From: a virus
DNA length: 10,850 bases
Virus genome (UHGV): UHGV-0105900
Direction: 5' to 3' (one strand)
Below the pieces are notes generated by a model. The model was not told the DNA's origin. It searched no databases and saw only the letters and a program-made list of their open reading frames with translations. Both the position numbers and the translations under genes were made by a program. Of the stretch, positions 1,787-10,800 are shown piece after piece (within the stretch, counting starts at the first letter, position 1; every line of letters starts with the position of its first letter).

Positions 1787-1946
1787 GAAATACTCGCGTG
1801 AGTGCTCAGGTTGCTCTCATGATACCTGCTCAGTGATAACAGGTATGTTAAGGCGCTCTCTGTACTCCATGCCTGATGCTGCAAGGTCAACGTTTACCTT
1901 GTTCTGTTTTTCTTTCGATTTCTCGGCGATGTTATGCCTGACATTG

Positions 1947-2231
1947 TCAACCCGCCTCCTTCTGAACATAACGGTTATAAATCAGTCCCTGAGGGCCATA
2001 AGGAAGCGGGATGTGCAACTCCTCTGGTTCAGAAACTATCCATTCTCCGGCCATCTCCGCTGGAGAGGTAATGATAAGTTGTTTGCTAATAAAAGGACCA
2101 CTCCTCTCAACAACAAGCTTACCATCTTCATTAATAAAAGCTTGGATGTCAGGTGTGCTTCCACACTTGGTGATGCAGCGTTTGAACATTTTGTGTCCCC
2201 CCATTTTATGTACGGGGTAATTATAACACAT
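1947..2231 (-). CDS. Hypothetical protein, possible Ral-like (restriction alleviation) protein; true start may be the internal ATG at 2189
   Basis: Contains FKRCITKC...INEDGKLV, which resembles recalled lambda Ral (FKRCNGCK...MEDGKYV); lies in the PL operon where lambda has ral; G-rich SD-like run precedes the ATG at 2189. Confidence 0.4.
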   Translation of the reverse strand: MCYNYPVHKMGGHKMFKRCITKCGSTPDIQAFINEDGKLVVERSGPFISKQLIITSPAEMAGEWIVSEPEELHIPLPYGPQGLIYNRYVQKEAG

Positions 2232-2658: not shown

Positions 2659-2684
2659 TCTTCAGGGCTTAATTTTTAAGAGCC
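2659..2684 (-). promoter_or_regulatory. nutL remnant: boxA-like GGCTCTTAAAAATTAA and truncated boxB (GCCCTGAAGA, lacking the closing AGGGC)
   Basis: Minus-strand leader ATCAGCAGGACGCACTGACCACCATGAAGGTGAGGCTCTTAAAAATTAAGCCCTGAAGA closely matches the recalled lambda PL leader, then diverges inside boxB. Confidence 0.6.
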
Positions 2685-2716
2685 TCACCTTCATGGTGGT
2701 CAGTGCGTCCTGCTGA

Positions 2717-2796
2717 TGGCTTAAAATTACAAGAAAGATTGTATGTTGTAAACAAGAAATATTGTAAAAAGGGGCGTGAAAAACAAACTCCATTGT
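2717..2796 (-). promoter_or_regulatory. PL promoter with three 434-type operators OL1 (2729-2742), OL2 (2752-2765), OL3 (2783-2796)
   Basis: 14-mers ACAAGAAAGATTGT, ACAAGAAATATTGT, ACAAACTCCATTGT (ACAA-N6-TTGT); minus-strand -35 TTTACA (2747-2752), 17-bp spacer, -10 TAATTT (2724-2729), start near 2717. Confidence 0.8.
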
Positions 2797-2845
2797 TTTT
2801 AAATGAAAAATAGTTTGTTTTTGGTTATCGAGATTGAGGTGGGGA

Positions 2846-4198
<1,353 letters not shown>

Positions 4199-7515: not shown

Positions 7516-8431
7516 TGTGTTTATTCCTTAAGATGTAACGAGGCCTAGCCTTGACTTCAATATATATTCTTCCGATATATTCACCAAGAACGCCAATGCC
7601 GATAAGTTGAATCCCGCCCAAGAACAGGATTGAAACAAGGAGTGAAGGATATCCTCTCACGGCATTTCCAAATGCAATAGTATCGATGATCATCCAGGCT
7701 CCGTAGATAAATGCAAGCCCAGCGACTAGTAATCCAATATAAGTCCACATACGTAGAGGGAATGTAGAAAAGCTAGTAATCCCTTCTAGAGCTAAATTCC
7801 AAAGCTTCCAGCCATTAAACTTTGTGCAACCAGCGACTCGCTCAGCTCTGGCGTATTCTACTACATCTGTTTTCCCGCCAACCCAAGACAAAACGCCCTT
7901 CATGAACAAGTTTCTTTCTGGCATTAGTTTGATATTTTCTACCACTTCTCGTGACATTAAACGGAAGTCACCGACGTTCTCTTCAATTTTGGGATTGCTG
8001 ATTTTATTGTGTAGCTTATAGAACCACTCAGCTGATTTTCGCTTTAAACGACCGTCAGTAGACCTGTCTGTACGTTTGGCCAGAACCATATCCGCCCCAG
8101 CCTGCCACTTCTCAATTAGGTGGGGGATTACTTCAATTGGGTCCTGCAGATCTACATCAATCGGAATGACCGCGTCGCCTGTAGCTTGGTCAAGGCCAGC
8201 AAACAAAGCCGGTTCCTTTCCGAAGTTACGCGTGAAGGAGAGAGGAACTACGAGTGGGTCAGCAATGGCAAGCGCGTTAATAATTGATTCTGTAGCGTCT
8301 TTGCTACCGTCGTTAATGAAGACTATTTCGACTTCATGCTGCTGAAGCCCTTCAAATTCCCGCACGGTTTTATAGAAGATTGGAATTGCTTCCTCTTCAT
8401 TAAACACAGGAACGACCAGAGAAATTTTCAT
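7508..8431 (-). CDS. gtrB: Bactoprenol (undecaprenyl-phosphate) glucosyltransferase GtrB (GT2 family)
   Basis: 307 aa; N-terminal GT2 motifs ([22 protein letters not shown]) plus two C-terminal transmembrane segments; ATGA overlap with the gtrA stop; AGGGA SD. Confidence 0.93.
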
Positions 8432-8790
8432 TTCACATCCCTAAAGACAATGAACTTTGAATAAATAAACCCGCACACCAGACTGATGGCGGAGAACAGA
8501 ATTAAGGTGATGATTGGTGCCAGACCAGATTTATCCGCCGCCCAACCCACAGCTGCGCTAAGCGTCCCCATAAAGCCGACGTAAAGCATGTATCGCATGG
8601 TTGTTGTGGATGACTTAAACGTGAATCTGGCATTTGCGAAGAAGCTAAATGACACAGCCACAACGAACCCGGCAAAGTTGCCAAGGGCCTGTCCTGTATG
8701 GAATGCATAGATGCAAATTGCGAACACTACCCAGTGAATGAGCGTGTTAATGACACCTATCGATGTGTACTTGGCGAATAACTTTAACAT
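8428..8790 (-). CDS. gtrA: Bactoprenol-linked glucose translocase (flippase) GtrA
   Basis: 120 aa from [23 protein letters not shown]..., matching recalled GtrA; the track ORF extends to a GTG at 8853 but the ATG at 8790 matches the homologue N-terminus. Confidence 0.88.
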
Positions 8791-8866
8791 TATAGAAATC
8801 AGTGAATTCGGAAAGGTCTGAAGTGTAGCACCACAAACGCTATTGATCGACACCGCCGATCAGTAC

Positions 8867-8886
8867 TACTGTATTAATATACAGTA
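8867..8886. promoter_or_regulatory. LexA (SOS) box TACTGTATTAATATACAGTA overlapping a candidate extended -10 (TGtATTAAT) for the downstream plus-strand gene
   Basis: CTGT-N8-ACAG palindrome, 19 of 20 matches to the consensus TACTGTATATATATACAGTA; 17 nt upstream of the humD-like start; lies in the 113-bp divergent region shared with gtrA. Confidence 0.85.
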
Positions 8887-8903
8887 ACTATCGGAGGTGA
8901 GTT

Positions 8904-9290
8904 ATGGGATTCCCGAGTCCGGCTCAAGACTATGTTGAAGAGCGCGTATTGCTCGACAAGCGCATCATAAGCAGACCAGCGGCCACGTATTTCATGAGAG
9001 CGGGTGCAACGCATCACCGCGAAGGCATCCTGAATGGTGCTCTTCTGGTAGTGGATGCATCGCTATCACCATGTGACGGCTCGTTGCTGGTTTGCAGAAT
9101 GGAAGGTGAGCTGAGGATTAAGCGATATCGCAAATCACCAAAGCCTCACCTGGAGGATTTGCAGACGGGAAGGCGTGAGGAGATACCGGCACACGATGAC
9201 GGCACGAGTCCGGATGCGATATTTGGTGTGATCACCTACATCATAAACGATGCACGCTCTGGCGAGTTTGATGATTGTCTGATTATGTGA
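8904..9290 (+). CDS. UmuD'-like (HumD-like) SOS mutagenesis accessory protein; S24-fold, naturally lacking the N-terminal arm, catalytic Ser position occupied by Thr
   Basis: 128 aa; starts M-GFPSPAQDYVEERV..., aligning with UmuD from Gly25 (the residue after the Cys24-Gly25 autocleavage site); aligned GDSM is GATH here, Lys of the dyad retained (RIKRY); GGAGG SD; in-frame stop at 8898-8900 directly upstream; no umuC follows. Confidence 0.8.
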   Translation: MGFPSPAQDYVEERVLLDKRIISRPAATYFMRAGATHHREGILNGALLVVDASLSPCDGSLLVCRMEGELRIKRYRKSPKPHLEDLQTGRREEIPAHDDGTSPDAIFGVITYIINDARSGEFDDCLIM

Positions 9291-9299
9291 AAATTTCGT

Positions 9300-9324
9300 T
9301 GTGTACCAAATTGCGTACCAAATA
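9300..9324 (+). repeat. Right-end copies of the GTACCAAA motifs (TGTGTACCAAA 9300-9310; GCGTACCAAATA 9313-9324); candidate integrase binding sites / right att region
   Basis: Exact 11-bp and 12-bp matches to the motifs at 8-18 and 32-43; located 10 nt after the last island gene and before host-like DNA. Confidence 0.45.
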
Positions 9325-9633
9325 AAAGTGTGATGAGAGAGATGGCTTTAATCACGCGGGTTTCGTGGCTGCTGCGCGTAATCGTGAAACAAAAAGGTAG
9401 ATTGTTGCTTACCGTCATTCATCATTAGGTTAAATCCGTTATTTCTGCTGTCTGCCAGAGTATCAAATATCACCGTGCTAATCAGCTTTAGCGCGACAAT
9501 TTGGCAGCGAGTGGCAACAGATCATGTCAGATAAAAATGAGGTAGTAGTCACATTTTCTTGCACTTTATTCCAGCCAGTTCATAAGTATTTCCGTAAAAA
9601 GAACAGCTATTTGAAACACCTGAGGGTTTGCTG

Positions 9634-10800
9634 TTGAAACGCCGTCTTATTATTGCTGCTTCTTTGTTCGTTTTTAATTTATCGTCTGGTTTTGCGGCGG
9701 AAAACATTCCTTTTTCACCTCAGCCTCCAGAGATTCATGCCGGGTCCTGGGTATTGATGGATTACACCACCGGTCAGATTCTCACCGCGGGTAATGAGCA
9801 TCAACAGCGCAATCCCGCCAGCCTGACAAAGCTGATGACGGGCTATGTCGTGGATCGCGCTATCGATAGTCATCGCATTACGCCAGACGATATTGTCACC
9901 GTGGGGCGTGATGCGTGGGCGAAAGATAATCCGGTGTTTGTCGGTTCTTCACTGATGTTTTTGAAAGAGGGCGATCGCGTATCGGTACGTGATTTAAGCC
10001 GAGGTTTAATTGTGGATTCCGGAAATGACGCGTGTGTTGCTCTGGCTGACTATATTGCCGGTGGGCAACGGCAGTTTGTTGAAATGATGAACAACTATGC
10101 CGAGAAGCTGCATCTCAAGGATACGCATTTTGAAACAGTGCATGGTCTGGATGCACCTGGCCAGCATAGCTCGGCTTATGATTTAGCCGTGCTTTCTCGC
10201 GCTATCATCCACGGCGAGCCCGAGTTTTATCATATGTACAGTGAGAAAAGCCTCACCTGGAACGGTATCACCCAGCAAAACCGTAACGGGTTATTGTGGG
10301 ATAAGACCATGAATGTTGACGGCCTGAAAACGGGCCATACTTCTGGTGCCGGGTTTAATCTTATTGCTTCGGCTGTAGACGGGCAGCGTCGCCTCATTGC
10401 AGTGGTAATGGGTGCTGACAGCGCAAAAGGTCGTGAGGAAGAGGCAAAAAAATTACTGCGTTGGGGGCAACAAAACTTTACTACGGTGCAAATTTTGCAC
10501 CGTAGGAAAAAGGTCGGTACGGAACGCATCTGGTATGGTGATAAAGAAAATATCGCCCTGGGAACGGAACAAGAGTTCTGGATGGTGCTACCGAAAGCCG
10601 AAATTCCACATATCAAAGCCAAATATACCCTTAATGGTAAAGAGCTCACCGCGCCAATTAGCGCCCATCAGCGGGTAGGGGAAATTGAACTTTACGACCG
10701 TGATAAACAGGTGGCGCACTGGCCGCTGGTTACCCTGGAATCTGTCGGGGAAGGCAGCATGTTTTCTCGCCTGAGTGATTATTTCCACCATAAGGCCTGA
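9634..10800 (+). CDS. dacD: D-alanyl-D-alanine carboxypeptidase, PBP5/6 family (PBP6b-like)
   Basis: Signal peptide, SxxK (SLTK), SxN (SGND) and KTG (KTGHT) motifs; sequence matches recalled E. coli DacD; probable TTG start at 9634 (388 aa) after GAGGG SD, alternative TTG at 9628. Confidence 0.88.
   Translation: MKRRLIIAASLFVFNLSSGFAAENIPFSPQPPEIHAGSWVLMDYTTGQILTAGNEHQQRNPASLTKLMTGYVVDRAIDSHRITPDDIVTVGRDAWAKDNPVFVGSSLMFLKEGDRVSVRDLSRGLIVDSGNDACVALADYIAGGQRQFVEMMNNYAEKLHLKDTHFETVHGLDAPGQHSSAYDLAVLSRAIIHGEPEFYHMYSEKSLTWNGITQQNRNGLLWDKTMNVDGLKTGHTSGAGFNLIASAVDGQRRLIAVVMGADSAKGREEEAKKLLRWGQQNFTTVQILHRRKKVGTERIWYGDKENIALGTEQEFWMVLPKAEIPHIKAKYTLNGKELTAPISAHQRVGEIELYDRDKQVAHWPLVTLESVGEGSMFSRLSDYFHHKA

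Follow-up and report, generated by a model that had tools for sequence, protein, structure and literature searches.

The HumD family has reportedly been described since work on the phage P1 protein in 1999. HumD is an already activated, shorter version of UmuD (PMC7092418), and a note in the P1 GenBank record states that it functionally complements UmuD'. The same record annotates a box as the LexA binding site for lxr and humD. Other UmuD-like proteins are carried by plasmids and ICEs, are SOS-linked and come with partners, as in MucA/MucB, RumA/RumB, ImpA/ImpB and SamA/SamB (PMC7092418, PMC8460599). The gene described here is likewise borne by a mobile element and linked to the SOS response. 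MucA, RumA, ImpA and SamA are, however, full-length proteins that need cleavage and are encoded in an operon with their own polymerase subunit, and none of these three properties applies to the present gene.

The gene is located in a stretch of 10,850 nt of viral DNA (UHGV-0105900), which is referred to as the window. P1 HumD (AAQ14073.1) is very similar to its product: it has 129 vs 128 amino acids, the same M-GFPSPA start, ∼70% identity (as also found for P1/P7 HumD by tblastn against phage genomes), a shared EFDDCPV tail, a LexA box ∼20 nt upstream of the gene, and no umuC alongside. It differs in its nucleophile residue, which is Ser (ADSH) as against Thr (GATH) in the window protein, and in its surroundings, as P1 is a plasmid prophage in which humD faces lxr and lies near phd/doc, whereas the window humD is found at attR beside gtrA. 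N15 gp26 (83% identity) and HK140_028 (72–74% identity) both have GATH with Thr, and phiKO2 gp23 is 67% identical; unlike in the window, these three phages have no gtr genes alongside humD, and N15 is a linear plasmid prophage. HK140 has an intact humD-attP-integrase (392 aa) module as in the window prophage, but its humD is the second gene of an operon facing dinI. E. coli UmuD and UmuD' (PDB 1UMU, 1AY9, 8GMT) share the S24 fold, the Lys general base and LexA-type regulation, and the first 13 residues past the cleavage point are almost identical (GFPSPAADYVEQR vs GFPSPAQDYVEER). Overall, however, the identity to UmuD is only 34%; the 24-residue arm and the Cys-Gly site are missing from the window protein, which has Thr for Ser60 and a one-residue deletion in the GDSM loop and carries a 10-residue acidic C-terminal extension, and its gene has no cotranscribed umuC. 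P1 HumD had been named as the precedent in the original prediction, which was made from the letters of this DNA, and that assignment is sound: the window protein is of the same type, as seen from an equivalog model match, 70% identity and the same start. The gene probably encodes a HumD-family Pol V accessory protein that is made directly as UmuD', and does so within a self-contained SOS cassette. The features of the region are as follows.

8428-8790, minus strand: gtrA (Pfam GtrA_DPMS_TM; a 363-nt gene in RefSeq on identical DNA), a neighbour outside the humD cassette
8843-8848, plus strand: -35-like hexamer TTGATC, recognised by conservation, containing a Dam GATC and lying 18 nt 5' of the TACTGT arm of the box
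8867-8886: predicted LexA (SOS) box TACTGTATTAATATACAGTA, with 2 mismatches to the 20-nt palindromic consensus, ending 17 nt 5' of the ATG
8893-8899, plus strand: ribosome-binding site GGAGGTG, read from the sequence and kept in related loci, overlapped by a TGA at 8898-8900
8904-9290, plus strand: humD-family gene (UmuD' homologue without the N-terminal arm), 128 aa plus stop, from the ORF list and family models
9009-9011, plus strand: codon ACG for Thr36, aligned with the UmuD nucleophile Ser60 (MAFFT and hhalign)
9120-9122, plus strand: codon AAG for Lys73, aligned with the UmuD general base Lys97 (MAFFT and hhalign)
9264-9287, plus strand: family-specific acidic C-terminal tail, EFDDCLIM in the window and EFDDCPVM in the family, extending past the end of UmuD
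9348-9425, minus strand: 5' stump of host sbcB, translated as MMNDGKQQSTFLFHDY followed by 9 foreign codons and a stop; 25 codons
9377-9406: attR core CGTAATCGTGAAACAAAAAGGTAGATTGTT, a 30-nt direct repeat (CGTAATCGTGAAA...) present at both prophage ends in E. coli PSS-10

Family membership and start of the gene

With the NCBIfam model NF051876 ('HumD family translesion DNA polymerase', an equivalog) the window protein scores 207.2 bits against a cut-off of 120 (E=6.6e-62), and the match runs from end to end, with residues 1–128 on profile positions 1–129. The model for the self-cleaving UmuD subfamily, NF007621, gives 80.7 bits, which is under its cut-off of 110. Peptidase_S24 (PF00717) is the sole Pfam domain found, and the Pfam search shows no N-terminal DNA-binding domain of the LexA/lambda cI type in the humD ORF; the true cI-like repressor of the window is encoded at 3247-3879 and has HTH_3 and S24 domains (Pfam). 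Searching solved structures with phmmer gives UmuD' and UmuD as the best relatives (1UMU, E=9e-17). In an AlphaFold model of the protein (mean pLDDT 71.9) the N-terminal 25 residues are disordered, and the top five fold matches in the PDB are UmuD/UmuD' chains, with LexA catalytic domains coming next. In RefSeq, E. coli genomes with 99.5–100% identical DNA name the gene either 'S24 family peptidase' or 'HumD family translesion DNA polymerase'. ORF 8904-9290 is a standard, already catalogued member of the HumD family, and its exact DNA is annotated in RefSeq. The family itself is a known kind that NCBI curates with a dedicated model, and nothing is overturned here.

The translation of the ORF starts with MGFPSPAQDYVEE, and in the alignment its M-GFPSPA start corresponds to Gly25 of UmuD, the first residue of UmuD'. 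Both MAFFT and hhalign place G2 on UmuD G25, which bears out the claim that the ORF begins at the N-terminal residue of UmuD'. Of the 120 best homologues in the database, 109 begin with M-GFPSPA as well. Neither the Cys-Gly cleavage site nor the 24-residue arm is present in the window protein when it is aligned to UmuD. An in-frame TGA at 8898-8900 lies two codons 5' of the ATG, and a longer form with the N-terminal arm is therefore excluded. All of the testable HumD features are found: the model score, the Gly25 start, the S24 fold, the LexA-like box upstream and the lack of an adjacent umuC. Three features of self-cleaving UmuD are missing, namely a score above the model cut-off, the arm with its cleavage site, and the Ser-Lys dyad.

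A self-contained cassette in a degraded prophage

The box TACTGTATTAATATACAGTA is the only match in the window at ≤3 mismatches to the LexA consensus, none of 200 shuffled sequences contained a match, and the pattern CTGT-N8-ACAG has a single occurrence in the window, at 8867-8886. The near-consensus LexA box that had been proposed at this place is in good standing also when related loci are considered. The survey covered 84 loci (the window, P1, N15, HK140 and 80 IMG/VR contigs), and a box was accepted if it had the form CTG-N10-CAG with ≤4 mismatches to the consensus and was found ≤450 nt upstream of the ATG. A LexA-like box precedes humD in 80 of these loci, including contexts without gtr genes. 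The distance from box to ATG is 14–21 nt in 40 loci, 41–43 nt in 6 and 254–285 nt in 34, and no box was found in 4. As read in HK140, the group with the largest distances has the box and TTGATC in front of an additional small ORF, in an operon with humD. This extra ORF of ∼79 aa directly abuts the 5' side of humD in HK140 (2676-3001 of the locus extract) and in 34 IMG/VR loci, and in HK140 the two-gene operon is divergent from a dinI homologue.

The 110 nt 5' of the ATG were compared in 25 loci with unrelated DNA further upstream, where terminators of other genes, tail-fibre genes or gtrA are found. Similarity among these loci starts abruptly at TTGATC and extends to the ATG, taking in an 18-nt spacer, the box, another spacer of 6 nt and GGAGGTG, and the distance from TTGATC to the box is fixed across all 25. 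This suggests a promoter in which TTGATC would serve as the -35 element and the TACTGT arm of the operator as the -10 element. A sigma-70 consensus scan of 8700-9650 called no promoter in the gtrA-humD spacer, a terminator scan of the same interval gave nothing relevant in the spacer or 3' of humD, folding of 9280-9400 was no better than for shuffled sequence (z = -0.43), and the window has no match in Rfam. It was considered that the box belongs to gtrA, but this was rejected as the primary assignment because, where gtr is absent, the box still lies at a fixed distance from the ATG of humD. As a side possibility, a shared operator could also link the divergent gtrABC O-antigen operon to the SOS response.

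The gtrA-humD spacer contains Dam GATC sites at 8845-8848, inside TTGATC, and at 8858-8861, in a CCGATC that recurs in many related loci. In Salmonella, regulation of gtr operons provides a basis for Dam-dependent control and phase variation. By analogy, humD could be under Dam control, or the divergent gtr operon could be phase-variable. A different kind of variation is found in E. coli E308 (NZ_CP030281.1) and in IMG/VR 2909246061_000003 (2941-2972 of the locus extract), where an ISL3-family element (ISKox3, with a 406-aa transposase) is inserted inside the LexA box at the equivalent of window position ∼8873. The insertion removes the TACTGT arm and TTGATC from an otherwise 100% identical humD gene, and is, on the predicted role of these elements, a natural uncoupling of humD from LexA.

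On its right side the window reaches the host chromosome. Empty-site E. coli genomes align to the window from 9377 onward only, and there the 5' end of sbcB abuts dacD. The prophage is inserted into the 5' end of sbcB, and dacD is the right flank gene. At attL the phage supplies a new N-terminus for sbcB (MTDTDKQPTFLFHDY..., 176-295 of the locus extract), so that sbcB (exonuclease I) stays intact. Between the humD stop and the att core there is a tandem GTACCAAAT-TGC-GTACCAAAT at 9304-9324, which may represent arm-type binding sites for the integrase.

The prophage in the window is a now degraded lambdoid prophage. It retains the integrase, an AlpA-like gene and a theta-subunit fragment, a cI-like repressor with an intact S24 domain, cro, cII and the Q antiterminator, as well as gtrA, gtrB and a DUF6311 gtrC-like gene; the ORF list and Pfam show no structural genes. 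The theta-subunit homologue fragment (1817-1969, minus strand) covers the first 39 of 70 positions of Pfam PF06440 and is annotated in PSS-10 as a pseudogene with an internal stop; phage P1 also has a theta homologue (hot) near humD. An ORF of 158 aa at 2846-3322 (minus strand) overlaps the 3' end of the cI-like repressor gene and has an internal stretch resembling a signal peptide; it has no match in Pfam and could represent a lipoprotein moron lying 3' of the repressor gene.

On the other side of humD, gtrA is the first gene of the divergent gtrA-gtrB-gtrC O-antigen modification operon, and the region under study was delimited accurately at 8791, the first base past the gtrA start codon. The junction of gtrA and humD is found in 34 of 5426 complete E. 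coli genomes, and at least the 3' part of humD is next to dacD at the sbcB-dacD site in 528 of the 5426. The humD cassette is a moron at the attR end of HK140-type phages, with gtrABC in an adjoining slot of some members only. The description of the gene as cargo of a serotype-converting island is correct insofar as humD does lie beside gtrABC in the degraded prophage, but the cassette is autonomous and typically found at attR with or without gtr, HK140 being an example of the latter. The same gtrA-humD spacer, with TTGATC and LexA box, occurs in Salmonella phage BTP1 (NC_042346.1, ∼18525-18685). In this case the humD copy is an unannotated pseudogene with G2E and a TAA at codon 29; what is annotated there is a hypothetical protein on the opposite strand. 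The possibility that the HumD-like gene is the BTP1 virulence gene st313-td was dismissed, as the latter is a different locus, STMMW_03531.

Active-site residues, C-terminal tail and selection

Thr36 on Ser60 and Lys73 on Lys97 are aligned both by MAFFT and by hhalign, where a profile of 42 family sequences was compared with UmuD and the same register was obtained. The substitution of Thr for the nucleophile Ser, with the Lys kept, had been proposed earlier and is supported by both methods. In the pairwise phmmer alignment to UmuD' from the PDB, a one-residue gap is placed elsewhere and H37 falls on S60; His37 as the residue at the nucleophile position was rejected, since MAFFT, the profile alignment and the 'DS' register of P1 favour Thr36. 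The motif at this site is ADSH in P1 HumD, GATH in N15 and HK140, and GDSM in UmuD, and it is the comparison of ADSH with GDSM that settles the register for Thr36.

How general this is can be seen from a set of 166 distinct family sequences of 120–132 aa, taken from phage-contig loci and from database clusters, the latter part being additionally chosen for an M-GFPSP start. Position 36 is Thr in 127, Ser in 35, Ala in 3 and Ile in 1 of them, and thus has a hydroxyl in 162 of 166. Position 37 is His in 156, a family-specific residue, and position 73 is Lys in 164. A neighbour-joining tree of the family has at least 10 changes at position 36, most of them Ser/Thr exchanges, which puts this position at the 69th percentile of columns, and two changes at Lys73. 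Having Thr at the nucleophile position is thus normal for the family and no quirk of the window gene. Position 36 is freed from the strict need for Ser of self-cleaving S24 proteins, yet it does not drift neutrally. The earlier interpretation as relaxed selection is therefore half right: the requirement for a catalytic Ser is gone and Ser and Thr have been exchanged at least 10 times, but the hydroxyl (162/166) and Lys73 (164/166) are kept.

The C-terminal tail EFDDCPVM is near-invariant in the family and absent from UmuD, and it is disordered in the AlphaFold model. Its codons vary synonymously, showing that selection acts on the protein. An overlapping att site was considered as the reason for its conservation; this was rejected, as the non-integrating N15 and P1 keep the tail and the codons vary synonymously. 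The tail may loosely resemble the C-terminal tip of SSB, through which SSB docks to its partners.

Pairwise dN/dS values between the window gene and 26 homologous genes are 0.05–0.13, which mostly reflects the history of the family rather than that of the recent lineage. The humD gene is real, and the family is under purifying selection. It is worth noting that the window allele has five residues that are absent from its nearest relatives: V15, L16, H38, L126 and I127. Position 16 (S16L) is Ser in 164 of the 166 family sequences and position 126 (P126L) is Pro in 161, and Leu126 is unique to the window allele among 75 distinct genes. Because of these rare residues, the allele could be impaired.

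Polymerase partner, mechanism and competing explanations

A umuC partner had been predicted to be missing, and the window indeed contains none: there is no ORF of such size or family, and tblastn with E. coli UmuC finds nothing. Within 3 kb of humD in the 84 loci (416 kb of flanks, with about a quarter of the loci ending right after the gene), tblastn likewise finds no UmuC homologue. Of 5426 complete E. coli genomes, at least 5415 contain the region from umuD to the start of umuC, so that a host partner is normally available. In the closest carrier genome, E. coli PSS-10 (NZ_AP027685.1), which has an identical humD allele (the best genomes cover 86–87% of the window), a ∼10-kb integrative element interrupts umuC after about codon 33, with umuD intact (region 2666360-2678210). 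This element encodes a tyrosine recombinase, two large ORFs without known function, AbiH-family proteins and a PIN-domain protein, and the same umuC junction is found in about two dozen E. coli genomes among the matches listed.

The cassette would work as follows. It consists of the TTGATC -35-like hexamer, an 18-nt spacer, the LexA operator doubling as a -10 element, the ribosome-binding site and the gene. In undamaged cells, LexA bound to the operator would block transcription of humD. Upon DNA damage, RecA would become activated, LexA would cleave itself, and humD would be expressed. As residue 2 is Gly, methionine aminopeptidase probably removes Met1, leaving GFPSPA as the N-terminus, as in UmuD'. 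HumD would then dimerise and bind the chromosomally encoded UmuC, itself under LexA control, giving a Pol V-like translesion polymerase that would not have to wait for the slow RecA-stimulated cleavage of UmuD. As self-cleavage would never be needed, the nucleophile Ser would be free to become Thr. That the protein acts as a pre-activated Pol V subunit is inferred solely from P1 HumD. The Ser-bearing P1 protein is the only HumD reported as tested (P1 record, PMC7092418), and no experiment on a Thr-type member was found in the literature searched.

Other explanations differ in what they take the gene to be, and in whether it still works. It might be a self-cleaving umuD that starts further upstream, or a 5'-truncated piece of a umuDC operon; the S24 peptidase homology and a weak, sub-threshold match to the UmuD model (80.7 vs 110) would fit this, but its probability is close to nil: an in-frame stop lies two codons upstream of the ATG. 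Further, humD has its own ribosome-binding site and operator, its start is shared by 109 of 120 homologues, and a Cys-Gly cleavage site, a Ser nucleophile and a umuC are all missing. A Ser at the nucleophile position combined with an upstream in-frame start restoring the arm was looked for, and what was found is an aligned Thr36 and the upstream stop; on the sequence as read, this explanation is already refuted. It is also unlikely, if more conceivable, that humD in this island is a decaying leftover that is no longer functional and looks intact because a disabling mutation has not yet had time to arise. In favour of this, no structural gene is left in the prophage, and the allele carries five substitutions private to its lineage at sites that are conserved elsewhere, among them S16L and, within the near-invariant tail, P126L. 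The orthologue in BTP1, joined to gtrA as in the window, is a pseudogene; the operator has been destroyed by an IS element in E308 and in IMG/VR 2909246061_000003; and PSS-10 has a broken umuC. Against this, nothing is disrupted in the frame, the start codon, the ribosome-binding site or the operator, and the HumD model score is far over the cut-off; the low pairwise dN/dS points the same way, though it is mostly family history rather than recent lineage history.

A functional HumD need not be a simple activator. It could instead be a modulator, forming heterodimers with UmuD or UmuD', competing for activated RecA or UmuC, or having an extra activity that depends on Thr/Ser-His...Lys or on the tail, and the outcome would be a tuning of SOS mutagenesis or of prophage induction. 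Lys73, the hydroxyl at position 36 and His37 are kept (164, 162 and 156 of 166) even though self-cleavage is impossible, the tail that UmuD lacks is near-invariant while its codons vary synonymously, and the cassette is maintained in plasmid prophages and integrating phages alike. This explanation is nevertheless very unlikely: it builds on conservation, which for the dyad residues may be structural, and the sole functional statement (P1 record, PMC7092418) supports plain UmuD'-like activity. Based on the kept hydroxyl, the family His, the Lys and the added acidic tail, it is also conceivable, though quite unlikely, that HumD has a second activity, such as cleavage of UmuD or of a repressor in trans, or docking to a replication or repair protein, with a tie between gtrABC and the SOS response as a side possibility. 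A HumD-family accessory protein of Pol V, made directly in the form of UmuD', is still the probable identity of the window protein.

As a discovery, the humD gene in this window matters little, as the family, the model and the exact DNA are already on record. About one tenth of complete E. coli genomes, however, carry at least the 3' part of humD at the sbcB-dacD site, and humD cassettes in prophages could shorten the delay that normally restrains the error-prone Pol V. The Thr majority at the nucleophile position, the conserved Lys, the invariant tail and the conserved promoter-operator module are starting points for a structure-function study of the family.
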